From positions 18,170 to 82,169 of the forward strand of contig JANNFI010000089.1 in NCBI GenBank assembly GCA_031379665.1: DNA of 64,000 nt, read 5' to 3'. The position numbers were made by a program, and so were the translations under genes. The notes beneath the pieces are model-generated. The model was not told the origin of the DNA. It made no database searches and saw only the letters and a list, made by a program, of their open reading frames with translations. This stretch comes from Ignavibacteria bacterium. GTDB taxonomy: Bacteria; Bacteroidota; Ignavibacteria; UBA10030; SZUA-254. Shown here one piece after another: positions 16,228 to 34,806 of this stretch (the stretch's first letter is position 1; each line of letters begins with the position of its first letter).

Positions 16228-16260
16228 TCCATGTGCTCAGTCGTTACGGGGTCGTCCGGG

Positions 16261-17760: not shown

Positions 17761-17875
17761 TCTGGCGTCGTTGGCTGGAAACAGCTGGCAATGTAATGAT
17801 TCCAGCGGTGAATGCAAATCTCAGCGGCGTTCGCGGCGGGGCTGGAGGCCCCCGTGAGCACACGATTCGTCCGGT

Positions 17876-20125
17876 TCATCGACCGTCGCCCGGCGGCTTT
17901 TCGGGTTCCTGTTCCGTCCCGTCCCCGGCCGCGAGCTCTTCCCTCGTCCTGTCGGCCACGATCCGTTGCAGCTCGAGCGGATGGTCCTCTTCCATCTCTT
18001 CCTCGGTCAGCGTCCCCTTCCAGAACGCCACGTTCAGGGGATACACGTCCGGGTTGAAGATCACGAAGTAGAAGTGCCACACGACGATGGCGAGCGTCGC
18101 CAGCCACGCCTCGTAGTAGTGTATGGTTCGGGCCACGTCATATCCCATTTTCGTGAGGAGGCCGATGAACGTGTTGTCGAACCACATGACGACGCCTGTT
18201 ACGCCCATGATGAAGGTGCCCCATATGAGAGCCCAGTATTCGGCTTTCTCGATGTAGGAAAACCGGTCGAAGAGCGGGCGCTCCGCTTTGAGGCCGAGGT
18301 TGTACCTCACCATCGCGACGGCGTCCCTGGCGTCACGGAGCCGCGGGAGCATGTCGTTGATAAGGCGTCGCCCCGGATGGGTGAAGAGGACGTACCAGAC
18401 GTGGTAGAAGCTCGCCCCCAGCATCACCACCCCGGCGACGCGGTGGATGACGCTGCGGGTGTCGAACACCGATCCGCTCAGCGACCTGATCCACTGCACC
18501 CACCACGCCTCGGGGAAGCGGAGCATGAACCCGGTAACGACCAGCGTCGTGAAGCTCAAAAGGAGCGCTGCGTGCTGGAACCTTTCGTTGGCCCCCATCC
18601 TCGGGTAGAGCTCGTGGCTCGTATGGGGGTGGGGGATGAGGCCGCGCCGGACCATCAGTTTCCGGCGTGATTTCCTCACGAAGTCGAGCGCGTTGTGGAC
18701 GAGCATCCCCCCGATAATGACCACGATCAACGCGATGTAGGCCGTCGAGATCCAGTAGAGCGTCGGCTCTTCCGCGCGGGAGGTCTCGTCGACGTGGACC
18801 TTGCCGACGGTAAACCGTTCGTTCGCCCCGGGATGGCAGCTGCCGCAGGTCTTTGCGAGGTTCGCGTGGTTGATCGTGGAGGTGGAATCGTCCGACGACC
18901 TGATGTTGTGCGTCCCGTGGCAGCTCGCGCAGTTGGCGACCTCGATCGAGCCGCCGCGGATGGCGAGGCCGTGGTAGCTGTCGGAGAAAGTGCGGAAACG
19001 GTCGCTCGCGATGCCGTACTTGGTCGAGAGGGCGGCGGAGCTGTGGCACGGCGAGCAGACCTGTGCCGAGAGGTTTTTCTTCGAGACGGGCGAGTTCGGG
19101 TCGTCGTGCCTGAGAATCGTATGTTCCCCGTGGCAGTCGGTACAGGTCGGCGCGTCGACAACCCCCTTCCGCACGGCCTCGCCGTGTACGCTCCCGTTGT
19201 AAACGTTCGCGATCTCCTCGTGACACTTGGAGCAGGTTTCGGAGATGTTCATCTTGCTGACTTTCGCCGTCGGGTCGTACCCCTTCGCCATCTCGTGGCT
19301 GCCGTGGCAATCGACGCAGTTGGGCGCGTCACCGTTACCGTTGACCAGCGCCCGCCCGTGGACGCTCTGTTCGTACGCGGCGATGAAGCCCGCCGACGGC
19401 GAGGACCTTTCCCTGACATCGGGGTTGTCGAGGTGGCAACTCAGGCAGAGGTGTTCCTGCGCCAGCTTCAAACCGACGGCGTCGTCGGGGTGGCTCGCAG
19501 ACGTGATGTCGTGGTCGTGACAGCTTATGCATTCCGGCGCGCCCTTCACCCCTGCGGAAAACGCCACGCCGTGCGCCGATGCGGCAAACTGCCCGACCAC
19601 ATCGTCGTGGCACCGGCTGCAGCCGTCGGAAATGTTCGCGCGGTTGAACGGCGATTCCTTCGTGTCGGGTGAAATGACGTCGTGGGTACCGTGACAGTCC
19701 TTGCACGAGACCGTGGGTTCTTCCTTCGCGGCGATTGCCCTCGCCATCCCGGGATGGAACGAGTGTTTCAATTCGACGCCCCTGTGGCAGGTGAGGCACT
19801 CCACCGGCCGTATGGTTTTCTTGTGCGGGAGCTCGTTGATGTCGAAGCCCGCGTGACAGGCCGAACAGACCAGTTTCCGATGCGGCGACCTGTCGAGGAC
19901 TGCGGCGTCGACGTGGAGCGACACCGGCGACCCGTTTCTCTCGGTCGCGAGCGATGCGTCGGAGTGGCAGGCCAGGCAGTCGTCCTTCGACTGGGCCCTC
20001 GCGGGACCGTTCAACATCCAGAACGCGGCCAGGAGGAACGCCACGGCCGCGAGGGCCACCACGAGCATCAGCCGCGCGAGCGGACTGCGTGCGGTGTATC
20101 CGGCGGATTGATCGTTGGTGTTCAT
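17876..20125 (-). CDS. 13-haem cytochrome c fused to a C-terminal dihaem b-type membrane domain (CbcL-like architecture)
   Basis: 13 CxxCH in the N-terminal ~450 aa. The C-terminal ~280 aa has 4-5 TM helices with conserved His pairs (HRVAGV...YHVWY, HYYEAW...WHFYF), resembling FdnI/HydC Ni_hydr_CYTB domains. Confidence 0.8.
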   Translation of the reverse strand: MNTNDQSAGYTARSPLARLMLVVALAAVAFLLAAFWMLNGPARAQSKDDCLACHSDASLATERNGSPVSLHVDAAVLDRSPHRKLVCSACHAGFDINELPHKKTIRPVECLTCHRGVELKHSFHPGMARAIAAKEEPTVSCKDCHGTHDVISPDTKESPFNRANISDGCSRCHDDVVGQFAASAHGVAFSAGVKGAPECISCHDHDITSASHPDDAVGLKLAQEHLCLSCHLDNPDVRERSSPSAGFIAAYEQSVHGRALVNGNGDAPNCVDCHGSHEMAKGYDPTAKVSKMNISETCSKCHEEIANVYNGSVHGEAVRKGVVDAPTCTDCHGEHTILRHDDPNSPVSKKNLSAQVCSPCHSSAALSTKYGIASDRFRTFSDSYHGLAIRGGSIEVANCASCHGTHNIRSSDDSTSTINHANLAKTCGSCHPGANERFTVGKVHVDETSRAEEPTLYWISTAYIALIVVIIGGMLVHNALDFVRKSRRKLMVRRGLIPHPHTSHELYPRMGANERFQHAALLLSFTTLVVTGFMLRFPEAWWVQWIRSLSGSVFDTRSVIHRVAGVVMLGASFYHVWYVLFTHPGRRLINDMLPRLRDARDAVAMVRYNLGLKAERPLFDRFSYIEKAEYWALIWGTFIMGVTGVVMWFDNTFIGLLTKMGYDVARTIHYYEAWLATLAIVVWHFYFVIFNPDVYPLNVAFWKGTLTEEEMEEDHPLELQRIVADRTREELAAGDGTEQEPEKPPGDGR

Positions 20126-20132
20126 ATTGGCC

Positions 20133-20972
20133 TCAGCGCGCGAGTTTCACGTCGTTGATCGCCTCGACCACGAGGGGAAAATACCGGTCGAGGGCGCATT
20201 CGACGTCGTCGCGCAGGTTGCAGCTTCCGCCCGGAGACTGGTGCACGCAGACCGAACAGACTTTTTCCCTCAGCCGTGCGACGAATGGCCCGATGTCGTC
20301 GCCTCCGGTGGTGAGCACGATGTCGATGATCTCAGGCAGGTAACGGTTGATGGCACACTCGTCAAAGGTGGAGGTGACGCAAAGCCCCGTCGGGGTGCGG
20401 TCGAGGCATTTCGCGCACACCCTCTGCCGGATCTCCCGGAGATACAGTTCTTCGTGCGACATGGAGTTCTCCCCTTCCATTTCCCAGTTTGTGGTTTCGG
20501 CAGGCTTCCGCGCGGTCCGTCCGGGCTTCACGACCATCACCGGTATGGAGGCGCCTCGCAGGATCTCCCCGGCGATTCCACCGGTGCGGACAGGATCACC
20601 CGCCGGCTCCCCTCCGGCCGGAAGCGGGAGCACGATGATGTCCATCCCTTCCTCCCGCGCGAACCTCAGGATCTCCGCGGCGGGCACCCCCCTGCGGACG
20701 ATACAGGCAAGCCGGGAATTCGGCCTGACCTTCTTCAGGAAGAACTCTTCCATCGCGTGGTATTTTTTCCGGAGATCCGGATCATCCTCCGCCGGTGATG
20801 CGTGATTTCCCGGGGCGAACCTCTCTTCGGGCGGGGTGATGACGTGAATCAGGTATATCTGTGATTTTTTTCCGTCGGAGAGGGCCAGGGCGGCATCGAG
20901 CGCGCATAATGAGGTGTCGGTGAGGTCGACCGGTACCAGAATCTTGTCGATATGTGCGGCTTTCTTCGACAT
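20133..20972 (-). CDS. Universal stress protein domain fused to a duplicated 4-Cys C-terminal module
   Basis: UspA-like N-terminus (KILVPVDLTDTSLCALDAALAL...VLPLPAGG). C-terminal repeats are VCAKCLDRTPTGLC..ECAINRYLP and VCSVCVHQSPGGSC..ECALDRYFP. Lies 7 bp upstream of the CbcL-like gene. Confidence 0.7.
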   Translation of the reverse strand: MSKKAAHIDKILVPVDLTDTSLCALDAALALSDGKKSQIYLIHVITPPEERFAPGNHASPAEDDPDLRKKYHAMEEFFLKKVRPNSRLACIVRRGVPAAEILRFAREEGMDIIVLPLPAGGEPAGDPVRTGGIAGEILRGASIPVMVVKPGRTARKPAETTNWEMEGENSMSHEELYLREIRQRVCAKCLDRTPTGLCVTSTFDECAINRYLPEIIDIVLTTGGDDIGPFVARLREKVCSVCVHQSPGGSCNLRDDVECALDRYFPLVVEAINDVKLAR

Positions 20973-21033
20973 ACCTGTATGAATAATAGACATCCGCGGA
21001 CACACGGGGTATGACCTCTGAAAGGTTCCGATA

Positions 21034-21045
21034 TGATTTTTATCA
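21034..21045. promoter_or_regulatory. Candidate FNR/CRP-family operator (TGAT-TTTT-ATCA) in the usp/respiratory-operon promoter
   Basis: A perfect TGATnnnnATCA palindrome sits about 60-75 bp upstream of the USP start, in the gap between the Crp/Fnr gene end and the USP gene. Confidence 0.35.
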
Positions 21046-21139
21046 GGTTCCGGGATTGATCTTGCGAATCGGAGGGAATTTCAAGGCGCCGGCGAGGGAG
21101 CGTGGCGGCTGACGGATGTCGTGTGGAGGGTTGCCGGGG

Positions 21140-21853
21140 CTAGTCGGGAATGCGTGCCGCCTCTCGAAGGGCGCGCAGGTTCACAATGCTGATCTTTTTC
21201 CCCTCGAGAACGATCGTCCCCTCCCTCGCGAGTTCGGAGAGCACTCGGATGACCGTCTCCGACACCGTGCCGATGTAGCTGGCGATTTCTTCCCTGGTGA
21301 GCCTGCTGCGCAGCGTGTGCCCGTCGTCCTCGGTGCCGTAGAATTCCTTCAGCATCAGGAGCGTCTCGGCCAGACGCTCCCTCACCTGTTTCTGGGCGAG
21401 TGACACCTGCTTCTGTTCGGCCCTGGCGAGGTCCTGCGTCAGTTGACGCATGATGCCTGCGGTGAGCGCGGGGTTTTCTTTCAACAATAGTTGGAAGGTC
21501 TGGCGTGGAATGAAGCAGATCGACGCGTCCTCCAGCACGGTGGCGGTGAGTTCGTACGGCGTCCCGCTCACGAGCGCCCGGTACCCGACCACGTCCCCCT
21601 CGCGCGCCAGGCGGACGATCTGTTCACGCCCCGCCTCGCCGACTTTCGTCAGCTTGACCTTGCCCTGATTGAGGCAATAGAGTCCCGACGGGTAATCGCC
21701 CTCGTAGAAGAGGACCTGGCCGCTCCTGTGGAAGTTGCATCCTTTGTGGAGTTGGAGTTTTCCGAGTTCCTCCTGGGAGAGGACGCTGAACATCGAATGG
21801 AGCCGCGGCAGGCAGGTCTCGCAGTGCGGTATCTCGAAAAGATTTTTCATCAC
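21140..21853 (-). CDS. Crp/Fnr-family transcriptional regulator with N-terminal Cys cluster
   Basis: cNMP-binding domain plus C-terminal HTH (EIASYIGTVSETVIRVLSELAREG). The N-terminal HCETC...C pattern is reminiscent of Fnr. Confidence 0.8.
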   Translation of the reverse strand: MMKNLFEIPHCETCLPRLHSMFSVLSQEELGKLQLHKGCNFHRSGQVLFYEGDYPSGLYCLNQGKVKLTKVGEAGREQIVRLAREGDVVGYRALVSGTPYELTATVLEDASICFIPRQTFQLLLKENPALTAGIMRQLTQDLARAEQKQVSLAQKQVRERLAETLLMLKEFYGTEDDGHTLRSRLTREEIASYIGTVSETVIRVLSELAREGTIVLEGKKISIVNLRALREAARIPD

Positions 21854-21854
21854 G

Positions 21855-22790
21855 CTATAAAATCTCGGAGATCTCGTGAAGGGTGAAGCGCGTGCGTTTC
21901 CCCTTGAGCGCGACGTCGTTGAACGTTTCCCTTGGGCGCACCCGCCCGAAGACCTCGCGCAGCGCCGCGTCGGAAATGAGCATCGACGTGCCGGTCTGTT
22001 TGTTGGCCTCCTCGATTCGCTCGGCCACGTTCACCGCATCGCCAATGACGGCCATTTTTTCCATGTTGGCCATGCCAATGGTGCCGATCACCACAGGGCC
22101 GTAATGGATCCCGATGCGGACACGGAACTTCCGCCGGTACATCGCCTGCAGGTAGGGGTTCAGCGAATCGACCTCCCAGAGCATCTCGAGTCCGGCGCGG
22201 ATCGCGCGGTAGACCGGATCAGGAGCGTCGTCGATCCCGAAGAGCGCCATGATGCCGTCGCCGATGTAGTCGTTGATCCGGCCGCCGTGAGAGTCGATCA
22301 CCCGCCCCATTGTGATGAAGTACCTCCGGAGCGCGTGGATGACATCGTACGCCGGGAGCGACTCCGCGAACGATGTGTAATCGCCGATGTCCGCGAAGAG
22401 GATGGCCAGGTGTTTCTCCTCTCCGACCGACCCTAGCTTGAGACCATGGCCCGTCTGGTCGGCGAGCTGAATGTCGAGCGTGTCGAGGACCGTACGCCGG
22501 ACGGTGACGTCGCCGTTGACCCTGGTCTGACAGGCGAGGCGCACCTGGGGATCGAAGTTGAGCCTGCCCGCAATTTTCTCTTCGGCGCCCTGGCGCGGCG
22601 AGCAACGGTCGAGGCCGGCGATTACCACGACACGGCAGGTGGAGCACCTGGCCTTCCCGCCGCAAACGTGGACGTGGGGGATCCCGGAATCGAGGGAGGC
22701 CTCGAGGATGGTGGTCTCTCCGGATGCCTCCATCTCTTTCTCGTCGGGGAGCATCAAGATCTTGTTCATCGCCTCACCGTCAGTTGCCAT
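21855..22790 (-). CDS. 2Fe-2S ferredoxin domain fused to class III adenylate/guanylate cyclase catalytic domain
   Basis: N-terminus has CGGKARCSTCRV...C (plant-type ferredoxin). The C-terminal CHD has FADIGDYTSF...RIGIHYGPVVIGTIG...GDAVNVAERIE. An alternative start at 22769 (MNKILMLPDEK) also fits. Confidence 0.8.
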   Translation of the reverse strand: MATDGEAMNKILMLPDEKEMEASGETTILEASLDSGIPHVHVCGGKARCSTCRVVVIAGLDRCSPRQGAEEKIAGRLNFDPQVRLACQTRVNGDVTVRRTVLDTLDIQLADQTGHGLKLGSVGEEKHLAILFADIGDYTSFAESLPAYDVIHALRRYFITMGRVIDSHGGRINDYIGDGIMALFGIDDAPDPVYRAIRAGLEMLWEVDSLNPYLQAMYRRKFRVRIGIHYGPVVIGTIGMANMEKMAVIGDAVNVAERIEEANKQTGTSMLISDAALREVFGRVRPRETFNDVALKGKRTRFTLHEISEIL

Positions 22791-22814
22791 CCCTGATACC
22801 CGGTACGGGCTGAA

Positions 22815-23414
22815 TTATTCCTTCTTCTCCGGCTGGACCTTCTTCATCTCCACCCTGATGGTGAGCCTGACATCCTTCGAGACAACGAGACCGCCGGCTT
22901 CGAGCGCCTTGTTCCATTTGACGCCAAAATCGAACCGGTCGATGGTGGTTTCAGCTTTCCAGCCCATCCTCACGCCGCCTCGCGAATCGGTCATGCTGCC
23001 GAAGTAGATCGCGTCGAGCACGACCGGCTTCGTCGTATCGCGGATTGTGAGATTCCCGGTAATTTTGTACTTGCCATCCGGGGTCTTCTCGAACTTGGTG
23101 CTCTTGAAGGTCGCCTCAGGGTGCTTCGTCGCGTCGAAGAAGTCAGGGCCGAGCAGGTCGTTGTCGCGGTATTCGTTGTCGGTCGCGATGGTGCCGGTCT
23201 TGATGACGGCTTCGATGGTCGCAGCCGAGAAATCCTCACCCGCGGAGGTCATCTTGACGTCGAAGTCCTTGAACCGTCCGGTGGCTTCGGCGATGATCAT
23301 ATGGGTGACGGCGAATTCGACCGAACTGTGCGACCGGTCGACCTGCCAGGCGTCCTGGCCGGCGAGCGGTCCCGCGGCGAGGATGAGACCGAAGAGAACT
23401 GAGAGTATCTTCAT
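22815..23414 (-). CDS. YceI-family periplasmic protein
   Basis: MKILSVLFGLILAAGPLAGQ signal peptide plus the YceI-like HSSVEFAVTHMIIAEATGRF motif. The ATG at 23414 was chosen over the extended track ORF. Confidence 0.75.
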   Translation of the reverse strand: MKILSVLFGLILAAGPLAGQDAWQVDRSHSSVEFAVTHMIIAEATGRFKDFDVKMTSAGEDFSAATIEAVIKTGTIATDNEYRDNDLLGPDFFDATKHPEATFKSTKFEKTPDGKYKITGNLTIRDTTKPVVLDAIYFGSMTDSRGGVRMGWKAETTIDRFDFGVKWNKALEAGGLVVSKDVRLTIRVEMKKVQPEKKE

Positions 23415-23562
23415 GATGGTTGTACCCCGGTATAAGTGTTTGTGATTGGAATCGATCATTTTAGCCCAAGGGAAGGAATTGCAAGATAACAACGGCGGAG
23501 GGTAAATACAAGTTCCGCGCGACAGGCCGGGGACAACAGTCCTTAAAAATGAGGGGATTACC

Positions 23563-23931
23563 CTATTGTAGCAGTACTGTTCCATTAAAGCGTGAATAAT
23601 GACAACTGGTTACAGGATCTGTGGGGACCAGGGCCCCATTGGCATGAGCCAGCGTGTTCCGTGCGACGACGCCGCGTAAACTACAATGGTAAAGTTTCTT
23701 CCGGAGCGCACCAAGACATGTTTCGATATCCCGGAGACTTTTTCTGAGGGTAATCTGGGCAAATGCCAGAGCTACGAACTGACTGCGCCGCGAGAACCGT
23801 TTGACGTAACGATCCCCCTGATATCGTCTGACGCACCGGCGGAACTCCGGCATCGGGAGGAAGTCCCTGAGTTGAGCGAAGACCGTTTTTCCCCTGTGTT
23901 CATCTACCCATCCTAACCCGAGGAGAAACAT
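23563..23931 (-). mobile_element. IS4-family (DUF4372-type) transposase N-terminal fragment, truncated remnant
   Basis: MFLLGLGWVDEHRGKTVFAQLRDFLPMPEFRRCVRRYQGDRYVKRFSRRSQFVALAFAQITLRKSLRDIETCLGA matches the N-terminal region of IS4/ISPg1-like transposases. The ORF stops after 122 aa and the DDE catalytic part is absent. Confidence 0.6.
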
Positions 23932-24205
23932 CAGAATAGGTGGGGAATTGACACTGTCAAAGTTCTAATCTATTGCTCTCTTTTAATGTCGTAACGCGGT
24001 CACGTACAATGTGTTACAAGGATTTATGAAAAGTTTTTTGAGACAGTATTGCTATTGTATCTCAAGATAATCGTTCCTACCTTACGGTATGTTACAACAT
24101 TCAGCGATTTACATATCGGAAGTTCGGGACGCACGTGAACGATTATTAAGGTAGGCGTCAAGCTTCAATTCTCGCTTAGAAACTCGGTGGAGATTTAATC
24201 AAGCG

Positions 24206-24709
24206 ATGCGAATAACAAAAGTACTTGGCATTCGCATATTTGGGGTCGTTATATTTTGCATCCTAATGCTTGATGTAATTTTTCTCACGTTGGAAAATAG
24301 AGAACTTAAAACCGCTCTCGATGCCGTTGCCCAGCGCGACGAAAGCCCTCAGCTTCCCGGGATGGTTATACCTACTTTTGGTGCTTTGACTCTGGGAAGA
24401 AACGCAGTCACACTTAATCTTGCTGATTCAGGTAAGCATTATCTTCTTTTTTTACTCTCCGCAGACTGTCACGCGTGTGAATCCACGTTAGGCTCATGGA
24501 ACTCCTTTAAGACCGAGGGTAACGTCGAGATACTGGGTGTATCGCTCAGTAATTACGAGGAGACCGTCCGATATGTGGGTTCTAATAGTGTCGAGTTTGA
24601 TGTCTTGACGCTGTCAGATCCGAATTTTATCCCCACAATCAAAATTAGAAGTATCCCATTAACCATCCTCATAAACCCGAGAGGGGTCGTCGTTAAATCG
24701 TGGGGGTGA
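24206..24709 (+). CDS. Membrane-anchored thioredoxin-fold (TlpA/ResA-like) protein with CHAC active-site motif
   Basis: N-terminal TM helix. YLLFLLSADCHACES is a CxxC motif in a thioredoxin-like context, and IPLTILINPRGVVV is a cis-Pro region. Confidence 0.55.
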   Translation: MRITKVLGIRIFGVVIFCILMLDVIFLTLENRELKTALDAVAQRDESPQLPGMVIPTFGALTLGRNAVTLNLADSGKHYLLFLLSADCHACESTLGSWNSFKTEGNVEILGVSLSNYEETVRYVGSNSVEFDVLTLSDPNFIPTIKIRSIPLTILINPRGVVVKSWG

Positions 24710-24825
24710 ATACTGTCACCAAGCGATCTACAAGATATTCGATCCCTCCTCATATCGGAGAATATTTCAGATAATTCCAAGCCATAAATAATTATCAACT
24801 CAATCAACCAACCTAGGAGGGAGTC

Positions 24826-25047
24826 ATGAATGCTTTTCCGAAATCCAGCCTGCTTTATGTTATTGGATTCGTCATTGCCATGGCGGGTTTAATTCAGCTA
24901 AATGTTACCGTAGCCAAAGCGGACCTCCCTCCATGTCCCACAGTGTGTTCTTGTGATGACCCGAGGCCGGGTGGGTGTGCGTGGAACTGTAACGGACAAA
25001 TCATCTCAAATTGTGGGGCATACTACAGTTTCTGCTGTCATTCTTGA
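24826..25047 (+). CDS. Secreted cysteine-rich small peptide (10 Cys in the C-terminal 42 aa)
   Basis: AGGAGG lies 7 nt upstream of the ATG. Signal peptide ends ...VTVAKA, followed by DLPPCPTVCSCDDPRPGGCAWNCNGQIISNCGAYYSFCCHS. Confidence 0.55.
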   Translation: MNAFPKSSLLYVIGFVIAMAGLIQLNVTVAKADLPPCPTVCSCDDPRPGGCAWNCNGQIISNCGAYYSFCCHS

Positions 25048-25179
25048 TGTTCCAGGGGAGTGAGGGTCACGCTCTCTCGTCCTGAATGAACAGCGGATTG
25101 CTGTCCTTTGACAAACATCACCCCTAAGTTATCATTAAAAATAAAAGATAGTGCATTGATAACATAGGGGTGAAATATT

Positions 25180-25938
25180 ATGATGAAAGTATGCTTGGGA
25201 CTAGCATTATTCTTACTCGGCTGTGTGCCGTGGGGATTTGATAAATCGGATGCTATTGTTGCACGCTCAATGACATCATGGTCTGATCGCGATTGTTTGA
25301 CAATCATGCTTTCAGCGATGCAGCATAATTATTACGATCCTGAGAAACCGCCGATTTTGGCTTGTGTGACACCGTACACACCGAGAGTTGTCATGGCATT
25401 GAACCGAATGTCTCAGCTTAAACATCGATGGTCAGATGAGACACTCCAGCACCACGCGGATGCGCTCCTCAAAGACGCGTCAGGGCTGTATGCGGATTGG
25501 GAGCATAATGCTCAGATCTATGATTCAAAGTTAAATCGACTTCGGGATCCAACACAGATGGATTCGATAACATTTCTCGTTACCCTTTCGAATCGGACAT
25601 GGCCGTGCGCTCCGCCGGTACTACTTACGTTGGACAACCTGACTGGTGACAAAACCCCACAGTTCATGCAGTTGTCAGACTGGCCGTGCGAGGTTCCCGA
25701 TCTCACTAATATTGAGTCGAATATATTTTTGATCAACGATCGCGGTGATACCGTGAGACCGAGGTATGTCTGGGGACGGAAAGATGACCAACTCAGAACC
25801 GACGAGACGTTACTAGTGATGTTTCCACTTCGGTCTGAAAATACACATTTATTCGAAAATTCAACTCAGATAACCATCGCATTCGCCGAGTTCACACCTA
25901 AACTCCAGCTGACGTTTCCTTTGGCCTCCTTGCGATAA
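25180..25938 (+). CDS. Lipoprotein, hypothetical (island cargo)
   Basis: 252-aa ORF with MMKVCLGLALFLLGC lipobox. No recognised domain. Confidence 0.5.
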   Translation: MMKVCLGLALFLLGCVPWGFDKSDAIVARSMTSWSDRDCLTIMLSAMQHNYYDPEKPPILACVTPYTPRVVMALNRMSQLKHRWSDETLQHHADALLKDASGLYADWEHNAQIYDSKLNRLRDPTQMDSITFLVTLSNRTWPCAPPVLLTLDNLTGDKTPQFMQLSDWPCEVPDLTNIESNIFLINDRGDTVRPRYVWGRKDDQLRTDETLLVMFPLRSENTHLFENSTQITIAFAEFTPKLQLTFPLASLR

Positions 25939-26213
25939 CTGTAGGTCAACCCCATCAGATTAGGCAAAAGCATTGGCCCAACAATTGTTGGACATTTTTT
26001 TATTATAGAACATTTCAATAGTTATCTCTGCTCTTTGGGGTCGTAGATACTAATTTCCGAGGTGGATCACTTTGAGGGGAGCCGGTCATTCATCGAGACG
26101 CCGCTAATTTTTCAACAAAGCCATTGCGCTTCTCACCGAATATCCCTTTACACCTATGTCGATTCGTTACCAATCACCAGCATTGCTCCCAATAAAATCT
26201 GACCGGAACGGAG

Positions 26214-26396
26214 TCACGAGCAAAATTGATTCTTCAAATTTCCATATGTAGGCGAAATAGCTTTTGATGGATCGTACCCTAAAAATTCGACAATTTTGGA
26301 AGACCGGCACTTTCCAGGATTCTCCCTTCCACTTTCCCACCCCAAGTACGTATTTCGATTGACACCTAGAAGTGCCGATGCTTGATAGGCAGTCAA
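26214..26396 (-). pseudogene. XRE-family HTH regulator, 5'-truncated at the island/host junction
   Basis: LTAYQASALLGVNRNTYLGWESGRENP is a canonical HTH_XRE second half. Upstream in frame the HTH continues as LRQRRVDLNL into GC-rich sequence with no ATG/GTG before a stop, so the ORF-track start is a TTG. Confidence 0.45.
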
Positions 26397-26481
26397 GTTG
26401 AGGTCAACCCGCCTCTGCCTCAGGTGATCCGGGGGCGACAGGCTGGGGATGGGGCGGGGGGAACACGGTGCGGCGCGGCCC

Positions 26482-28056
26482 CTATTTCATCAGGTTCATT
26501 TTTCGCACCATCTGGTGGGACCCGCTCCGCATCCTGCAAAAATAGATGCCGGAGGGGAGCGCCGAAGCGTCGAAGGTGACGCTGAACCGGCCCGTCCCCG
26601 GGTTGCCGTCCACCAGGGTTGCGACCTCGGCGCCGAGCGTGTCGTACACCCTGATGTTCACCGGTCCGCCGTCGGACAGAAACGAAATGACGGTCGAGGG
26701 ATTGAACGGGTTGGGATAGTTCTGGCTGAGGCTGATGGTCTCAGGGAGGCCGTCCGCGGCGGCCGCGGTCGGATCGACGATCGGGAGCACCTGGAAATTC
26801 TGCAGCAGGACCGCGTCGAGGACATCCTGCGGCACGCCGAACCACTGCCGGAGCACCGATGCGTACACCTGACGGAAGTCGTATTGCATCTCCAGGTTGT
26901 CGTTGTTCGAGACCAGATCGGGAATCACCGGATTCGCGCCCGTGATGCCGTGGTTGATCGCTTTGCCAAAGAGGATGACGGGCGCCGCCTCGCCGTGGTC
27001 CGTCCCGAAGCTGGAGTTCGACTTGATCCTGCGACCGAACTCAGAGAAGGTCATCCCGATCACGCGGTGGTCCGCCCTCAGCAATCGGAGGTCCTCCTGG
27101 AACGCGAAGATCGCCTCTGAGAGTTTGCCGAGGAGGTCGGCGTGGTTTCCGAACTCCGTCCCGAGCGTGCCGTCGACCTGGCCGGCGTGGGTGTCGAATC
27201 CCCCGATGTTGGTGACGTAAATGCGTGTCTTCAGCCCGCCCGCGATGAGTTTGGCGACGATCTTGAGCTGGTCGGCGAGCCTGTTCGACCCGGACGGCGG
27301 ATAGACCGGCGACTGCGACGGCACTCTTTCTGCGGCCGCCTTGATCCTGTCGGTGTAGACCGACGTCTGATTTACGACCTGCCGGATGAACGTCAGCTCG
27401 TGGCCGGCGGGCGTGTCTGGGGCGGTATCGACGCCGCCGGTGAGCAGCTGGTAGAACGACGTGGGGCTGGTGATGGCCATTCCGAGCGAGCCGTTTGGTC
27501 CCTGGAGCCCCGTCGAGACCACCGAACCGATCTGGATCGCCAGTGGGTCAGGCATGATTTCATTCGGATACCCGATGGGAAAATCGGCGTAGGTCTGGTC
27601 CAGCCACCTGCCGAGCCATCCCGAGTTCAACGTCTCGTCAGCGTCCGAACCCGTCAACCAGATGTCCATGCCGCGGAAATGCGATTTGTTCGGGTTCGGA
27701 TAACTCACTCCCTGGACGATGTTCAGCCGGCCGTCGGTGTAGAGGTTCTGCAGCCCCGACATCGAGGGGTGGAGCCCCGTCTCGTCGGTGAGCTTCAGTA
27801 CCTTGTTCTCGGGGATCACGATGTTTCCACGGGCGTTCATGAGGGCAGGGTACTGGTCGAGCGGGATCACCGTGTTGAGCCCGTCGTTGCCGCCGTTGAG
27901 CTGGATCAATACGAGGACTCGGTCGCTCGGCGTTCCCGCGCTGATCAGGCTCTCGAGGACCTTTGACCGCCCGTAGGTTTTGATGTTGAAGCCCCCGAGG
28001 AGGAACGGGAGGAGGGCGACGGGGGCGGAATTCCTGATGAATGACCTTCTTCTCAT
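26482..28056 (-). CDS. DUF1501-family (alkaline-phosphatase-like superfamily) protein with Tat-like signal and T9SS C-terminal sorting domain (copy A)
   Basis: MRRRSFIRNSAPVALLPFLLGGF is a twin-arginine-like motif. The C-terminus NYPNPFNPSTVISF...VYDTLGAEVATLVDG...GIYFCRM...KMNLMK matches the Por_Secre_tail pattern. Confidence 0.75.
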   Translation of the reverse strand: MRRRSFIRNSAPVALLPFLLGGFNIKTYGRSKVLESLISAGTPSDRVLVLIQLNGGNDGLNTVIPLDQYPALMNARGNIVIPENKVLKLTDETGLHPSMSGLQNLYTDGRLNIVQGVSYPNPNKSHFRGMDIWLTGSDADETLNSGWLGRWLDQTYADFPIGYPNEIMPDPLAIQIGSVVSTGLQGPNGSLGMAITSPTSFYQLLTGGVDTAPDTPAGHELTFIRQVVNQTSVYTDRIKAAAERVPSQSPVYPPSGSNRLADQLKIVAKLIAGGLKTRIYVTNIGGFDTHAGQVDGTLGTEFGNHADLLGKLSEAIFAFQEDLRLLRADHRVIGMTFSEFGRRIKSNSSFGTDHGEAAPVILFGKAINHGITGANPVIPDLVSNNDNLEMQYDFRQVYASVLRQWFGVPQDVLDAVLLQNFQVLPIVDPTAAAADGLPETISLSQNYPNPFNPSTVISFLSDGGPVNIRVYDTLGAEVATLVDGNPGTGRFSVTFDASALPSGIYFCRMRSGSHQMVRKMNLMK

Positions 28057-28063
28057 GGCATCC

Positions 28064-29767
28064 TCACGTCAGCTGGTATTCGGGCATCGAGAGCATCACC
28101 GAGAGGAGTTCACGGAGCTTTGTGGTGATGGCGGCGGCCTTCCCGGGATCCGTGGGATCCGACACGTAATCGGACCATTCGATCGTCCACTCGTAATCGG
28201 GCAGGCCCGGGAGCAACGCGTCCTTGAGGAACTCCTTCTGCACCGGGGTGATCGCGATGGGGTAGAGGAATTCGGCCCACTCGTCGATGAGCCCGTTCGG
28301 ATCGGCCGGGTTTGAGCAGAGATTTGCGAACGCGATCGGGTCGATGGACTGCCTGAACCCGTTCTGGAAGTACCCGGTCCCGGACAATCTGTCGGTGAAC
28401 TCCGTCCTCCCGGCGAGCGTGTCGGCGTTGATCCACATTTCATAATACAGCGGGTCCTGGTGGTACGCCGGCCACCCGGCCACGCCGGGCGGATCGAGCA
28501 GCTCCTGCTGCATGGCCGTGGCCCGCGTGGAGAGGTACCGCCAGTGATTGTACTGTGCGAGGAGCGCCGGGTTGTCGACGGCCACGGGATACGAAACAGA
28601 ATGGGTGCGCGCCGTGCCCACGGTCAATTCGACCGGGCTCTTGATCACGCATCCGACGTTGACGTTGTCGTAGAAATGGGCGCTCTTGAGGAGGGCGGCG
28701 AGCGCCGGCTTGATCTCGTAATTGCTGTTCCGGAGGATGTCGGCCATCGGTGCGATGACGTTGGCCTCCGCCGCGGCGTCGATCACATAGTAGACGAACC
28801 AGCGGTAGAACTTTCTGCATATGTACCTGGCGGTCTCGGCCTGCAGGAAAATCATGTTCAGGAGGTCGTCCACTTCGTTGGCGCCGGCCGCGCCCTCCTG
28901 TCCCGCGATCACGGTGTTGCCGTACGCCTGCGAAAACTGCTTGTTCCCCGCGTCGTGCCTGCTGGCGGTGAAATAGGATACGAAGGTCGCGCTGCTGTCC
29001 CTCCACCCGCTCAGCACGCGAGCGGCCTCCTGGACGTCGAGTTCCGTGTAATTGGTGTAATTCCCGGGACCGATCTCGGCGCCCTTCCCGATGGTGAAGA
29101 GCTCCTGCAGCTCTCGCGCGTAATTTTCGTTCTGGTTGTTATCCGTGTTCGAGTTCCCGTTGAGGAACCGGAGCATCGCGCCGTCGAGTGTGACGAGCTT
29201 CGTCAGGTCCCGAAAATTCCCGAGGGCGTGCTGACGCAGGAGGACGTGGTTCCTGTAGGTGTGGCGGGCGTCCCCAATCACCGCGGATTCGGTGGCGAAA
29301 TGGTTGTGCCAGAAGAGCGTCATTTTTTCGCGCAGCGAAGGACCCTGGCCGAGCATCAGGCTGACCCACCACGACCGGAGCGAGTTGTGGCGCAATCCGC
29401 CGGATGCGGACGTCGGCGCGTTGATCCAGGTCGTGCCCGCCGGCGCCTCGGGGTCGCTGTCGTTGTAACTCACCGGAGGATCGGGGACGGCCGGCTCGGT
29501 GAGGAGGAGGTCCACGAGGTCGCCGACACTCAGGGCGGACAAGGTCGCCACCTCCTGTGGCTTCAGCCCGAACATCGTTCGGCGAAGGAGGTGCCTGACC
29601 TGCCCGACTCCCCAGGGCCCGCCGTAAGGCTCCAACCCTGCGACGCTCCTCGGGACTGCCGGGATCGATTTATTGGCGAAATCGCTCGGCTCGAATTTCC
29701 TGCGCTCGCGCCGCTCGACCGGCCGGTCCGTTTCGGCGACGGTTGAGATGAATTCCCTGCGTTTCAT
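28064..29767 (-). CDS. DUF1800-family protein (copy A)
   Basis: HLLRRTMFGLKPQEV... is DUF1800-like. It pairs with the DUF1501 gene in the widespread pairing seen in other genomes. The ATG at 29767 (MKRREFIST) was chosen by alignment with copy B. Confidence 0.7.
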   Translation of the reverse strand: MKRREFISTVAETDRPVERRERRKFEPSDFANKSIPAVPRSVAGLEPYGGPWGVGQVRHLLRRTMFGLKPQEVATLSALSVGDLVDLLLTEPAVPDPPVSYNDSDPEAPAGTTWINAPTSASGGLRHNSLRSWWVSLMLGQGPSLREKMTLFWHNHFATESAVIGDARHTYRNHVLLRQHALGNFRDLTKLVTLDGAMLRFLNGNSNTDNNQNENYARELQELFTIGKGAEIGPGNYTNYTELDVQEAARVLSGWRDSSATFVSYFTASRHDAGNKQFSQAYGNTVIAGQEGAAGANEVDDLLNMIFLQAETARYICRKFYRWFVYYVIDAAAEANVIAPMADILRNSNYEIKPALAALLKSAHFYDNVNVGCVIKSPVELTVGTARTHSVSYPVAVDNPALLAQYNHWRYLSTRATAMQQELLDPPGVAGWPAYHQDPLYYEMWINADTLAGRTEFTDRLSGTGYFQNGFRQSIDPIAFANLCSNPADPNGLIDEWAEFLYPIAITPVQKEFLKDALLPGLPDYEWTIEWSDYVSDPTDPGKAAAITTKLRELLSVMLSMPEYQLT

Positions 29768-29969
29768 CGTTTGATCCTTATTTCGTGCGGTCTTCATAGG
29801 TAGGGAAAACCCGCCGGCGAAACAAGATTTCGCGGAGAGAGTGTGTCGGGGATCACTTTAAAACAGGAGGGGAACGCCACCTTCACGAACGAAGATGCGC
29901 GCCGTCACCTTTTTCGAAGGGGAGCGAGCAAGAAAAAAATCGTCCCGGTGGGGGGATTGTCGGGGTGGG

Positions 29970-31577
29970 TTACTTCACGAGGATCATTTTCCGGACTTCC
30001 TCGTGGGCACCGCTCCGCATCCTGTAATAATAGATACCCGCCGGAAGCGACGAGGCGTCGAACGTGACGCTGAATCGGCCCGCCCCCCGGTCGCCGTCGA
30101 CGAGCGTCGCCACCTCAGCGCCCAGCGTGTCGTACACCCTGATGCTCACCGGGCCGCCGGCGGACGTGAAAGAGATGGTCGTCGATGGGTTGAACGGGTT
30201 CGGATAGTTCTGGTCGAGCGCACCATTCACCGGAATGCCGGCGGCGAGCGCACCCTCTCCGCTGACGATCGGAAGTCGCGGCTGGGGCAGCGGCCCGATC
30301 AGCGGCAGCGCCTGGAAGTTCTGCATCAGCACGGCGTCGAGCACGCCCTGTGGCACGCCGAACCATTGTTGAAGGACGGACGCATACACCTGTCTGAAGT
30401 CGTACTGCATTGCCAGGTTGTCGGTGTTCGTCACGACGGCCGGGATCAGCGGGTTCGTGCCGGTGATGCCGTGTTTGATCGCCTTGCCGAACAGGATGAC
30501 GGGCGCGGCCTCCCCGTGGTCGGTCCCGAAGCTGGCGTTCGACTTGATCCGCCGGCCAAACTCCGAGAAGGTCATCCCGATGACGCGGTGGTCAGCCCGC
30601 AGGACGCGAAGATCTTCCTGGAACGCGAGGATCGCCTGGGAGAGTTTTCCGAGGAGGTCCGCGTGATCGCCGTACTCGGCGCCGAGCGCCTGGTCGATCT
30701 GCCCCGCGTGCGTGTCGAACCCCCCCAGGTTCGTGATGTAGATTCGGGTCTTGAGGCCCCCCGCGATGAGTTGGGCGACGATCTTCAGCTGGTCGGCGAG
30801 CTTGTTGGTCCCGGGAGCCGGGTAGAGAGACGACTGCGCCGGCACCTTGGCGGCCGCATCCTTGATCCGTTGGGCATAGACCGACGTCTGTTGTGCGACC
30901 TGCCGGATGAACGTCAGCTCGTGGCCGGCGGGCGTGTCGGGCGCCGCGTCCACACCGCCGGTGAGTAGCTGGTAGAACGAGGTGGGGCTGGTGATGGCCA
31001 TTCCGAGCGAACCGGCAGGCCCCTGAAGTCCGGTCGAGACGACCGACCCGATCTGGATCGCGAGCGGGTCGGGGGCTATCTCGTTGGGGTACCCGTTCGG
31101 GAAATCGGGGTACGTCTGGTCGAGGTACCGTCCGAGCCAGCCGGTGCTCAGCGTCTGGTTTGCGTCCGAGGCGGTCAACCAGATGTCCGTGCCGCGGAAG
31201 TGTGACTTGTTCGGGTTCGGGTAGGTCACCCCCTGCACGATGTTCACCCGTCCGGCCGTATAGAGATCCCGCAACCCTGTCATCGAGGGGTGGATCCCCG
31301 TCGCGTCGGTGAGTTTCAGGACCTTGTTCTCCGGGATGACGATGTTTCCGCGGGCGCTGACCAGGGCCGGGTATTGGTCGAGCGGGATCACCATGTTCAG
31401 CCCGTCGTTCCCGCCGTTGAGCTGGATGAGGACCAACACGCGGTCGCCGGGCGTGCCTGCGCCGATCATCCCCTCGAGGACCTTCGAACGGCCGTACGTC
31501 CTCACGTTGAAACCGCCGAGGAGGAACGGGAGGACGGCGACGGGTACGGAATTCCTGATGAAAGCTCTTCGTTTCAT
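29970..31577 (-). CDS. DUF1501-family protein with Tat-like signal and T9SS C-terminal domain (copy B)
   Basis: MKRRAFIRNSVPVAVLPFLLGGF, and high identity to copy A along its full length. C-terminal Por_Secre_tail-like domain. Confidence 0.75.
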   Translation of the reverse strand: MKRRAFIRNSVPVAVLPFLLGGFNVRTYGRSKVLEGMIGAGTPGDRVLVLIQLNGGNDGLNMVIPLDQYPALVSARGNIVIPENKVLKLTDATGIHPSMTGLRDLYTAGRVNIVQGVTYPNPNKSHFRGTDIWLTASDANQTLSTGWLGRYLDQTYPDFPNGYPNEIAPDPLAIQIGSVVSTGLQGPAGSLGMAITSPTSFYQLLTGGVDAAPDTPAGHELTFIRQVAQQTSVYAQRIKDAAAKVPAQSSLYPAPGTNKLADQLKIVAQLIAGGLKTRIYITNLGGFDTHAGQIDQALGAEYGDHADLLGKLSQAILAFQEDLRVLRADHRVIGMTFSEFGRRIKSNASFGTDHGEAAPVILFGKAIKHGITGTNPLIPAVVTNTDNLAMQYDFRQVYASVLQQWFGVPQGVLDAVLMQNFQALPLIGPLPQPRLPIVSGEGALAAGIPVNGALDQNYPNPFNPSTTISFTSAGGPVSIRVYDTLGAEVATLVDGDRGAGRFSVTFDASSLPAGIYYYRMRSGAHEEVRKMILVK

Positions 31578-31584
31578 GTCGTCC

Positions 31585-33291
31585 TCACGTCAACTGGTAT
31601 TCGGGCATCGCGAGCATCACCGAGAGCAGTTCGCGGAGCTTCGTGGTGATCGCGGCGGCTTTCCCCGCGTCGCCCGGATCGGACACGTAGTCCGACCACT
31701 CGATCGTCCATTCGTAATCGGGCAGTCCCGGGAGGAGCGCATCCTTCAGGAACTCCTTCTGCGCCGCCGTGATGGCGATCGGGTAGAGGAAATCCGCCCA
31801 CTCGTCGATCAGGACGTTCGGGTCCGCGGGGTTGGAGGAGAGGTTCGCGAACGCCACAGGGTCGATGATCTGGGTGAAGGCGTTCTGCTTGTACCCCGGC
31901 CCGGCCAGGACGTCGGTGAACTCGGTCCTGTTGGCGAGCGTATCGGCATTGATCCACAATTCGTAGAAGATCGGGTCCTGGTAGTACGCCGGCCATCCGG
32001 CGACGCCCGGGGGGTCGAGCAGCAGCTGCTGCATCGCCGACGCCTGGGTCGACAGGTACCTCCAATGGTTGTACTGCGCGCTCAGGTTCGTCCCGTTGGG
32101 CAGCGCCACCGGATAGACGACGGAGAACGTCCGCGCGGCGCCGACCGTCAGGTCGGCCGGACTCTTGATCACGCAGCCGGTGTTTACGGGGTCGAAGAAA
32201 TGGGCGCTCTTGAAGAGGGCCGCGAGCGCGGGTTTCACGTCGTAGTTGTTGTTCCTGAAGATGTCGGCCATCGGCGTGATGACGTTGGTTTCAGCCGCAG
32301 CGTCGATGACGTAGTACACGAACCAGCGGTAGAGCTTGCGGCAGATATACTTCGCCGTTTCGGGCTGCGCGAAGATCATCGTGATGAGGTCGTCGATCTC
32401 GTTGGCGCCCGCGGCGCCGGCCTGCCCCGTGATGATCGTGTTGCCGTAGGCCGCGGAGAACTGCTTGTTCCCGGCGTCGTGCCGGCTCGCGGTGAAGTAC
32501 GACACGAAGGTGGCGTTGCTCTCCCTCCAGCCGCTCAGCACCCGGGCGGCCTGCTGGACGTCCACCTCGGTGTAGTTGGTGTAGTTGCCCGGGCCGATTT
32601 CCGGGCCCTTGCCGATGGTGAAGAGCTCCTGCAGCTCGCGCCCGTAATTTTCGTTCGGGTTCGCGGCGGTGTTGGTGTCGCCGTTGAGGAACCGGAGCAT
32701 CGCGCCGTCGAGGGTGACGAGCTTCGTCAGGTCCCTGAAGTTTCCGAGGGCGTATTGCCGGAGCAGCGCGTTGTTCCGGTAGGTGAACCGGGCGTCGCTG
32801 ATGATGGCGGCCTCGGTGGCGAAATGGTTGTGCCAGAAGAGTGTCATTTTTTCCCGCAGGGACGCGCCCTGCGCGAGCATCAGGCCCACCCACCACGAAC
32901 GGATAGAGTTGTGCCTCGAGCCGTTCGAGGTGGACGTCGGTGCGTTGATCCAGGTCGTTCCCACGACCGAGCCGGTGTCGGCGGCATTGATGTTCAGCGG
33001 GGGATCGGGAAGCGCGGGTTCGGTGAGCAGGAGGTCCACAAGCGCGTTGACGCCCAGACCGGATAGCGCCGTCACGTCCTCGGGTTTCACACCGAACATC
33101 GTCCGGCGCAGGAGGTGCCTCACCTGCGCGGCGCCCCAGGGCCCGGCGTACGGTTCGAGTCCGGAGGCGCTCCGCGGAACACTCGGCAGCGACTTGTTGG
33201 CGAAATCGCTTGCCTCGAACGCACGCCGCGCTCGCCGCTGAACCGGCCGGTCGGCCTCGCCGACGGTCGAGATGAATTCCCTGCGTTTCAT
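31585..33291 (-). CDS. DUF1800-family protein (copy B)
   Basis: Paralog of 28064..29767. Begins MKRREFISTVGEADRP. Confidence 0.7.
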   Translation of the reverse strand: MKRREFISTVGEADRPVQRRARRAFEASDFANKSLPSVPRSASGLEPYAGPWGAAQVRHLLRRTMFGVKPEDVTALSGLGVNALVDLLLTEPALPDPPLNINAADTGSVVGTTWINAPTSTSNGSRHNSIRSWWVGLMLAQGASLREKMTLFWHNHFATEAAIISDARFTYRNNALLRQYALGNFRDLTKLVTLDGAMLRFLNGDTNTAANPNENYGRELQELFTIGKGPEIGPGNYTNYTEVDVQQAARVLSGWRESNATFVSYFTASRHDAGNKQFSAAYGNTIITGQAGAAGANEIDDLITMIFAQPETAKYICRKLYRWFVYYVIDAAAETNVITPMADIFRNNNYDVKPALAALFKSAHFFDPVNTGCVIKSPADLTVGAARTFSVVYPVALPNGTNLSAQYNHWRYLSTQASAMQQLLLDPPGVAGWPAYYQDPIFYELWINADTLANRTEFTDVLAGPGYKQNAFTQIIDPVAFANLSSNPADPNVLIDEWADFLYPIAITAAQKEFLKDALLPGLPDYEWTIEWSDYVSDPGDAGKAAAITTKLRELLSVMLAMPEYQLT

Positions 33292-33608
33292 CGTTCAATC
33301 CTTGTCAATGGTACATATGACCTTGCCCGGCCCCACTGGAAAGGGACTATTCCCCCGAATAGTAACCTGTGGGATTGATCCGGAAGGGACGGGTTCCCCG
33401 AAACCCGCGTACAGAGTGATGTTAATATATAGAGAAAAACCCCGAGCGAATCAAGCTCCCCCTCAGTGAAAACTGTTATCTGGGGGATAAAAACGGGTAG
33501 AAATGCCCGTTTTCGGAACGATTCCCCGCCAGGCCCCCTTTACCTTCATCGGTCCTCTGGCTATATTGGGGCGTCCATAACCGTACACAACCTCGGAAGG
33601 AATCACTA

Positions 33609-34205
33609 ATGAAAAAGATCGTCTTCGCCAGCATCGTCGGGGGTGTCATACTTTGGGTTTGGGGATTCATTTCGTGGGTCGTCCTCCCGCTCCACGTCTC
33701 CGCCCTGCACCCGATTCCGAATGAAACTGAAGTCCTCGCTTCGCTCGGGGGCGCACTCACCGAAAAAGGCGTCTACAGGTTTCCCACGATGCCGGAAGGC
33801 GCAGCCGACCTTCCACCCGCCGAACAGGAGGCCGCGATGGCCGCGTACATGGCAAAGGTCCAGGCTGGCCCCAATGGGATGATATTCTTCGACCCGGCGG
33901 GAAAGGACCCTCTCATGGCCGACCGGATGATCCCCGGATTGCTGATCTTCATGGTCTCGGCGGGCATCGTCGCGTGGCTGCTCTCGAGGAGCACGGCCGT
34001 CGGGGAGTCGTTCCTGTCGAGGGTGATGTACTGCGGGATGATCGGGACGCTCATCGCCGTCGGGTGTTACCTCTCCGACTGGAACTGGATGGGGTGGTCG
34101 TTCGACTGGACGAGGGCCCTGATGCTCGACAGTATCGTGGCGTGGCTTCTGGCAGGCGTCGGCATCTCGGCCATCGTCAAACAGAAACCAGTCGCGGCAA
34201 TGTGA
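33609..34205 (+). CDS. Integral membrane protein, hypothetical (4 TM)
   Basis: 198-aa ORF with four hydrophobic helices. Confidence 0.55.
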   Translation: MKKIVFASIVGGVILWVWGFISWVVLPLHVSALHPIPNETEVLASLGGALTEKGVYRFPTMPEGAADLPPAEQEAAMAAYMAKVQAGPNGMIFFDPAGKDPLMADRMIPGLLIFMVSAGIVAWLLSRSTAVGESFLSRVMYCGMIGTLIAVGCYLSDWNWMGWSFDWTRALMLDSIVAWLLAGVGISAIVKQKPVAAM

Positions 34206-34748: not shown

Positions 34749-34806
34749 TATCCTCCATCGAACCCGCGCAGGCCTGAACGACCGGCTGGAGGTTGATGTT
34801 TCAAGT

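Follow-up and report, generated by a model that had tools for sequence, protein, structure and literature searches.

Segment between yceI and DUF1501

The DNA analysed here, referred to as the window, is a 64-kb stretch (64,000 nucleotides) of contig JANNFI010000089.1 from a metagenome-assembled genome (MAG) of the Ignavibacteria, a host with a GC content of ~62%. Our subject is a 2.9-kb low-GC segment of this window, positions 23534-26434, which lies between a yceI-like gene and the first of two DUF1501 genes. From left to right the segment holds the remnant of an IS4-family transposase (minus strand), a gene for a membrane-anchored TlpA/ResA-like thiol:disulfide oxidoreductase, a gene for a short cysteine-rich peptide with a predicted secretion signal, a lipoprotein gene (all three on the plus strand), and an XRE-type helix-turn-helix (HTH) gene that has no start codon (minus strand).

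The composition of the segment sets it apart from everything else in the window. Its GC content is 0.458 (45.8%), while other 2.9-kb windows average 0.622 with a standard deviation of 0.017 and a minimum of 0.576, giving the segment a z score of -9.5. In a 300-nt scan, GC drops from ~0.62 to 0.37-0.50 across ~23.4-26.4 kb, and the remaining 1-kb bins of the 64 kb are all at or above 0.567, so that the compositional break is unique in the window. The GC content at third codon positions (GC3) follows the same pattern, with values of 0.45-0.53 for the five open reading frames (ORFs) of the segment and 0.75-0.86 for eight flanking host genes. The segment thus deviates in both composition and codon usage, as a horizontally acquired islet would. 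The composition-normalised trinucleotide signature gave no discrimination between host and putative donor (r = 0.69 vs 0.71). A sequence-only reading of this DNA had described a sharp compositional break against the GC-rich flanks at 23563-26430; the sliding GC and GC3 comparisons bear out the break, and its proposed limits prove slightly too narrow, the true ones being 23534 (or 23551) and 26434.

Host flanks and empty site in relatives

Relatives were found by scanning GTDB species genomes with the protein of DUF1501 copy 1. The two nearest, both Ignavibacteria MAGs, are L006 and L007, whose DUF1501 copy 1 proteins are 87% and 74% identical to that of the window; the comparison therefore covers two relatives at 74-87% amino acid identity, which are few and not very close. 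The L006 locus (21.6 kb) is colinear throughout, matching window blocks 17332-23422 and 26466-37669 at 77-87% nucleotide identity with only short gaps. At ~85% nucleotide identity overall and synteny over more than 20 kb, L006 does not contain the 3-kb segment. The distance between yceI and DUF1501 is 134 bp in L007, 752 bp in L006, and 3067 bp in the window, where the spacer less the insert and one repeat copy (described below) comes to 151 bp. The wider spacer of L006 results from a GC-rich marR-family regulator gene (~11790-12232) beside yceI, at a different place in the spacer from the window insert and missing from both the window and L007. With three genomes in three states, the yceI-DUF1501 spacer is a hot spot of gene-content change. 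The comparison for an empty site that had been proposed thus found the segment absent from both L006 and L007 between syntenic flanks. The same segment was not present in all relatives, the finding that would have spoken against an insertion, and the insertion reading stands.

On the left, the host yceI-like gene (22815-23414, minus strand; Pfam YceI, E 1.5e-44; GC3 0.81) is ~85% identical in nucleotide sequence to its syntenic counterpart in L006, and the spacer upstream of it (23415-23518) aligns with L006 and L007 as far as ...AAATACAAGTTCC. On the right, a short piece of host spacer (26450-26481) leads to DUF1501 copy 1 (26482-28056, minus strand; Pfam DUF1501 and Por_Secre_tail; GC3 0.86), which carries a sorting tail of the type IX secretion system (T9SS) and is 85% identical in nucleotide sequence to L006. 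The segment is placed directly 3' of this gene, in agreement with the original placement of the insertion downstream of the first DUF1501 copy.

Junctions and the flanking direct repeat

A 15-bp direct repeat, GCGACAGGC(C/T)GGGGA (repeat family D2), brackets the insert exactly, with two copies that are identical at 14 of 15 positions and have a spacing of 2916. The left copy, GCGACAGGCCGGGGA (23519-23533, plus strand), was located by repeat search and sits where homology to L006 stops, and the right copy, GCGACAGGCTGGGGA (26435-26449, plus strand), sits where that homology resumes, the sequence from 26450 onwards being colinear with the L006 spacer. Allowing up to two mismatches, these are the only two matches to the 15-mer in the window. 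A 14/15 match arose in none of 3000 shuffles of the two 71-nt junction windows and in one of 3000 random pairs of host windows. Flanking direct repeats, a feature of acquired islets, are therefore present. The L006 spacer carries a single counterpart of the repeat, and the sequence that follows it is colinear with the reconstructed window spacer; because of this colinearity after a single counterpart, we interpret the repeat as a duplication of host target sequence and not as a pre-existing pair. The repeat fits either an insertion at a site resembling an attachment (att) site or one mediated by microhomology, and does not in itself identify the mechanism.

The first 17 nt past the left repeat, CAACAGTCCTTAAAAAT (23534-23550), are shared with a 790-bp scaffold from a sister sample (L089; ENA ERZ28573521 scaffold_1403679), which then diverges. 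They are followed by an AT-rich stretch with no assignable homology (23551-23637; GC 0.38-0.40 in 40-nt windows), which makes up the part of the transposase ORF that lies beyond the transposase homology, the latter ending at 23638. The host junction and the insertion sequence (IS) remnant are thus 104 nt apart (23534-23637), made up of the 17 shared nucleotides and 87 nt of unassignable AT-rich sequence.

Searches for the machinery of an integrative element were negative. No integrase or recombinase was found among the five ORFs of the segment with Pfam, NCBIfam, and PHROGs, no tRNA or tmRNA gene is present in the 64-kb window, and Rfam returned zero matches for the insert. The suggested BLASTN comparison of the island with phage collections gave no matches, and plasmid collections likewise gave none; the lipoprotein found nothing in plasmids by tblastn, and neither the lipoprotein alignment nor the TlpA-like protein recovered any loci from IMG/VR. 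PHROGs and PADLOC scans of the insert gave nothing beyond generic HTH matches, on which basis defence-island and prophage readings were rejected. The segment had been described as a degraded integrative element. It is indeed foreign, inserted, and degraded, but the features of an integrative and conjugative element (ICE), a prophage, or an integrative and mobilizable element, namely an integrase or recombinase, a tRNA, and phage or plasmid homology, are all absent.

The IS4 remnant and the XRE-type gene

The leftmost ORF (23563-23931, minus strand) matches Pfam DUF4372 with an E value of 1.7e-28. Its homologous part, 23638-23898, aligns at 56% identity with residues 2-88 of the 389-aa ISGme2 IS4 transposase. 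The NCBIfam model transpos_IS4_1 scores 26.5 bits against a cut-off of 115, and a tblastn search with the full transposase found nothing beyond residues 2-88 in the island or the window. A functional IS4 copy would have a full-length DDE transposase, and here only residues 2-88 of ~389 are left; as an N-terminal remnant, the fragment does supply the mobility gene or remnant that characterises an islet. A composite transposon would have two IS copies around its cargo, and the window has one IS remnant. In its identity to residues 2-88, and in a possible terminal sequence at a similar distance, the remnant resembles IS4 elements of the ISGme2/ISPosp4 type, which have an N-terminal DUF4372 domain; it differs from them in lacking three-quarters of the transposase, with the DDE catalytic region, and the second end, and in having no other copy in the window. 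The candidate terminal sequence, AATACTGTCTCAAA (24037-24050, minus strand), is a weak one, lying ~140 nt upstream of the transposase start, while the terminal repeat of ISGme2, ACTACTGTCCGGTAAA, lies 130 nt upstream of its own. No partner was found on the expected side, although a weak inverted partner occurs at 24709-24722 (pair I11, complementary at 12 of 14 positions). This pair (AATACTGTC...), with one member on either side of the TlpA-like gene, is similar to the terminal repeat of ISGme2, ACTACTGTCC; it may be a second IS-end scar or may be due to chance. IS4 target duplications are ~9-13 bp long, and the 15-bp repeat observed here is longer. The proposal that the island is bounded on the left by this transposase fragment is accurate insofar as the remnant lies at the left end, but the remnant is internal, 104 nt inside the host junction, and we regard it as a passenger or scar within the insert and not as its boundary.

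At the right end, the XRE-type gene (26214-26435, minus strand; listed as ORF 26214-26396) contains a complete HTH_3 domain and is a pseudogene as it stands. When the frame is read up to 26435, the domain covers profile positions 1-53 of 55 and scores 33.8 bits against a cut-off of 23. The frame remains open back to ~26489, into the GC-rich host spacer, with no ATG, GTG, or TTG until the first possible start, a TTG at 26396 that is inside the domain. An intact regulator gene would have a start codon before helix 1, and this one does not. Its loss to the GC-rich spacer is limited to the start and the N-terminal leader, and the earlier description of a right-hand XRE gene whose 5' end is replaced by GC-rich sequence was therefore correct. 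Joining the ends of the insert in silico (26434, repeat, 23534) produced an ATG-initiated ORF of 95 aa that reads into the complete HTH domain. A homology search with this circular-junction ORF gave no relatives at all.

Oxidoreductase, peptide, and lipoprotein genes

The TlpA/ResA-like protein (24206-24709, plus strand) was assigned from Pfam, NCBIfam, and comparison with contigs L002 and L093, and has a C-H-A-C motif. Its matches to the Pfam families AhpC-TSA, Redoxin, and Thioredoxin_8 have E values from 3e-5 to 3e-4 and scores of 21.4-24.5 bits against cut-offs of 26-27; in NCBIfam it matches ResA (E 7e-6, 26 bits against 170) and StoA (E 4e-5). It is 33-41% identical to the proteins encoded just before the lipoprotein homologues on L002 and L093, and a scan of JGI metagenomes with the protein found only two relatives, at 30% identity, neither accompanied by the module. 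The N-terminal membrane anchor, the thioredoxin-like domain with a CxxC motif, and the weak but consistent profile matches are shared with TlpA, ResA, and StoA oxidoreductases. The scores under the family cut-offs, the unusual CHAC motif, and an insert that holds no cytochrome-maturation or Sco/Cox context distinguish it from them.

The next gene (24826-25047, plus strand) encodes a peptide of 73 aa that is predicted to be secreted from its signal-like hydrophobic N-terminus (...VAKA/D) and that would carry eight cysteines in ~42 mature residues. No homologues of the peptide were found in 5.8e9 clusters, and phmmer against 1.8e9 representatives returned only repetitive, compositionally biased matches. 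An AlphaFold2 model of the peptide alone was uninformative (predicted local distance difference test score, pLDDT, of 61).

The lipoprotein gene forms a self-contained transcription unit (25106-25999, plus strand; coding sequence 25180-25938), whose 252-aa product has an LLGC lipobox. A scan for promoters and terminators identified a promoter-like TTGACA-16-TATCAT at 25108-25135, and hairpins are present at 25118-25173 and, followed by a T-run and terminator-like, at 25976-26000. An alternative reading of the first hairpin as an attC site of an integron cassette was rejected by eye, as its arms are inconsistent with the RYYYAAC / GTTRRRY cores. The promoter is near the sigma-70-type consensus (11/12) and overlaps a 17-nt inverted repeat, TCACCCCTAAGTTATCA / TGATAACATAGGGGTGA, immediately before the lipoprotein gene. 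This region (25108-25173) is conserved in contig L003 and may be an operator, and a sigma-70-type promoter is worth noting in a host of the Fibrobacteres-Chlorobi-Bacteroidetes (FCB) group. The lipoprotein belongs to a family with eight members in the 5.8e9 clusters, in which the lipobox is conserved and WPC motifs are invariant. It has no match in Pfam, NCBIfam, or PDB, and its AlphaFold2 model (pLDDT 70) gave no significant fold match in PDB. The whole unit is 83% identical in nucleotide sequence to L003, a 45%-GC contig, over exactly the stretch that begins with the TTGACA at 25108 and closes with the T-run of the terminator at ~25999, with different neighbours on both sides. This confinement of the identity to the lipoprotein unit implies that the islet is itself a mosaic and that its donor pool has a GC content of ~45%.

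Canonical ribosome-binding sites had been ascribed to the island genes generally. This holds for the peptide gene, which has a properly spaced AGGAGG at 24815-24820, and not for the other two, where the upstream motifs are poor (GGAG ~15 nt before the TlpA-like gene, GGGGTG in place of a ribosome-binding site before the lipoprotein gene). The companion claim, that host genes generally lack such a motif, agrees with our count over the whole window, where a Shine-Dalgarno-like motif was almost never present upstream of the likely starts of ~44 long host ORFs. Scarcity of Shine-Dalgarno motifs is expected for translation initiation of the Bacteroidota/Ignavibacteria type.

The order of the three genes recurs in one unrelated contig. 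On this contig, L002 (59% GC, beside ffh-rpsP-rimM-trmD-rplS), a TlpA-like gene, a Cys-rich peptide gene, and a lipoprotein gene follow one another in the same order (L002 3-1564). The TlpA-like protein of L002 has 33% identity and a CPHC motif, and its lipoprotein 41% identity, to those of the window. Between them is an unannotated ORF of 69 aa (462-671), signal-bearing and with 10 Cys, that has part of its Cys framework (..NC.AY..) in common with the window peptide. The L002 module has a GC content of 0.516 vs 0.597 for the rest of that contig. On contigs L093 and L094 a TlpA-like gene immediately precedes a lipoprotein gene that is truncated at its N-terminus.

The segment in other assemblies

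Sequences from other assemblies match the host and the island separately. L088, a 10.5-kb Logan contig from run SRR20217213, matches window 13004-23521 at 100% identity and breaks off after the first 3 nt of the left repeat, and L090, a 1224-bp contig of the same run, is 100% identical to island positions 23949-25172. A further contig from ENA, L001, is 99.8% identical to 24300-25133. In these other assemblies, the island occurs only as short contigs, of 834, 1224, and 1346 bp. Since L088 and L090 come from one run, host and island co-occur, with the assembly graph breaking at the junction. The stop of L088 at the junction, together with island pieces of at most 1.2 kb in the same run, suggests a branch in the graph or a change in coverage, that is, strain heterogeneity. 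The sister-sample scaffold L089, which represents a slightly different strain, matches window 22804-23550 at 99.7% identity (2 differences in 747 nt). Exact-protein look-ups for contigs that span a junction, using DUF1501 copy 1, the transposase fragment, and the 60-aa HTH ORF, found nothing on record.

Neighbouring host genes

The left flank (13004-22790) contains a cluster of multihaem cytochrome, Rieske, and cytochrome b genes, followed by genes for Usp, a Crp-family regulator, and a 2Fe-2S-adenylate cyclase fusion that adjoins yceI. To the right, a pair of genes encoding DUF1501 (with T9SS sorting tail) and DUF1800 proteins is tandemly duplicated (26482-29797 and 29970-33291). L006 has two copies of this pair and L007 has one, which indicates that the duplication is older than the island and lineage-specific.

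Origin and possible function of the segment

Taken together, these features probably identify 23534-26434 as a recently acquired, strain-specific, and degraded foreign islet that came from a lineage of ~45% GC and now occupies a spacer of ~150 bp between yceI and DUF1501 copy 1 in a 62%-GC member of the Ignavibacteria. In its GC and GC3 deviation, absence from relatives, mobility remnant, short direct repeats, intergenic site, and secreted-protein cargo, it is similar to other genomic islets with IS scars; it differs in being very small (2.9 kb), in having neither a tRNA target nor an integrase, and in having its IS scar inside. The insert probably arrived as one piece, as a circularised DNA fragment that underwent a single crossover with the chromosome at the 15-bp identity. 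This identity could have arisen by chance, as microhomology, or could be an att-like core on which a recombinase acted in trans. A single crossover would duplicate the 15-mer and would split any gene that spans it in the circle, and the restoration of an ATG-initiated, 95-aa XRE ORF when the ends are joined fits such a circle-crossover model. The IS was presumably already truncated in the donor, and the islet would now be immobile. Overall, the islet is an ordinary horizontally acquired remnant of a known type, unusual in content only for its rare three-gene set.

The products of the three cargo genes may cooperate in the extracytoplasmic space. In this scheme, the oxidoreductase would make or edit the disulfide bonds of the Cys-rich peptide, with the lipoprotein serving as an accessory or immunity partner. 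We tentatively propose, as a possibility that we hold to be well short of likely, that the cargo is an undescribed, horizontally mobile module of a TlpA-like oxidoreductase, a Sec-exported peptide of 8-10 Cys, and a lipoprotein of an unannotated family, the peptide being secreted in disulfide-knotted form. Under the same tentative proposal, which concerns FCB-group bacteria without general Dsb machinery, the peptide could for example be a bacteriocin-like toxin for which the lipoprotein provides immunity or an accessory function, or it could bind metal in the periplasm. The closest precedent is provided by the bacteroidetocins, class IIf bacteriocins of Bacteroidetes (PMC6671954). In bacteroidetocin loci, full toxin activity depends on an adjacent thiol oxidoreductase, which is believed to introduce the disulfides of the peptide; this dependence is attributed to the absence of general disulfide machinery in Bacteroidetes (PMC6671954). 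The likeness is that a small, exported, Cys-containing peptide is encoded beside a dedicated thiol oxidoreductase in an FCB-group bacterium (24206-24709 and 24826-25047; the pairing is seen again in L002). However, the features that define bacteroidetocin loci are a double-glycine (GG) leader, an ABC transporter with a C39 peptidase, and a protein with five transmembrane segments (PMC6671954), and none of these is found in the insert. The peptide has a Sec-type signal instead of the GG leader, has 8 Cys and not 4, and shows no sequence similarity, and a lipoprotein is present in place of the transporter and the membrane protein. The module may work like a bacteroidetocin locus, and is not a member of that class.

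Several observations weigh against this account of the islet and its cargo. After the left repeat and the 17 shared nucleotides, L089 continues into 44 nt of unrelated GC-rich sequence (L089 1-44), for which neither the window nor any fetched locus gave a match. Its divergence could reflect a second insert sharing 17 nt, a fuller ancestor of the islet, or a scaffold artefact. Because L089 diverges after 23550, the left boundary may be placed at 23534 or at 23551, and the history of the site may have been multi-step, for example with an earlier GC-rich insert that was partly replaced. No independent assembly crosses either host-island junction past 23550. The proposed circle of 2.9 kb, itself hypothetical, has no replication or recombination gene, and an open stretch of 27 codons, partly GC-rich, such as that in the restored XRE ORF is not improbable by chance alone. 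With regard to the cargo, the lipoprotein gene is found without the other two genes in four other contexts, including L003, L004, and L092. In L004, tandem lipoprotein paralogues (625-2131), 36% and 42% identical to the window protein, are encoded upstream of a SulP/STAS transporter gene. The cargo function is based on gene order in two or three contexts only, and the linkage of oxidoreductase, peptide, and lipoprotein is suggestive and not obligate.

Part of this evidence also bears on a different origin, in which the segment is the remnant of a site-specific integrative element, comparable to a cis-mobilizable element, whose integrase was deleted or acted in trans. The imperfect 15-bp repeats, located exactly at both ends, would then be the attL and attR cores, and L089, which keeps the repeat and 17 nt of the element-side arm before it differs, would represent another or a more complete member of the element family occupying this att site. 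Integrative elements typically have an XRE regulator at one end, and the variability of the site across three genomes is also compatible with this origin. We consider it unlikely nonetheless, as the insert encodes a DDE remnant and no integrase or recombinase, the 64-kb window has no tRNA, the window contains no further occurrence of the 15-mer, searches for phage, plasmid, or ICE-like homologues found none, and the 17 nt in common with L089 are short for an att arm.

The fragmentary record of the segment in other assemblies raises the question of a metagenome assembly chimera, with 2.9 kb of AT-rich sequence from another organism spliced into an Ignavibacteria contig. The island is known elsewhere only from its three short contigs, L088, with 10.5 kb of host sequence, reaches only as far as the junction, L089 continues differently, and neither junction is crossed by an independent contig. 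Yet both junctions fall in one ~150-bp host spacer with flanks colinear with the relatives, so that an assembler would have had to exit and re-enter at the same point, and the 15-mer common to the two junctions contains a mismatch and falls short of assembler k-mer lengths. One run moreover yields both host and island contigs identical to the window, and a chimera seems to us very improbable. Still harder to sustain is the view that the region is ancestral and was lost independently in the relatives with no acquisition at all, to which we give almost no credence. The variable spacer, with marR in L006 and nothing in L007, would agree with such losses, but GC3 values of 0.45-0.53 in a genome with a GC3 of ~0.85 indicate that no amelioration has taken place, the segment contains an IS scar and a gene without a start codon, its lipoprotein unit matches a 45%-GC contig at 83% identity, and the flanking duplication derives from host sequence.

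As a recently acquired islet, the segment would be mainly useful as a marker of strain variation, and it is a textbook case of a small, decaying acquired patch in a MAG. This region of the contig also serves as a warning that read-level validation is needed. The insertion signature, a 15-bp duplication together with a gene that becomes whole again upon end joining, is mildly instructive for the entry into a chromosome of DNA that carries no recombinase. The trio of oxidoreductase, peptide, and lipoprotein, represented at present by two or three loci, would be worth attention if it is truly a new peptide-toxin or metal-handling system.

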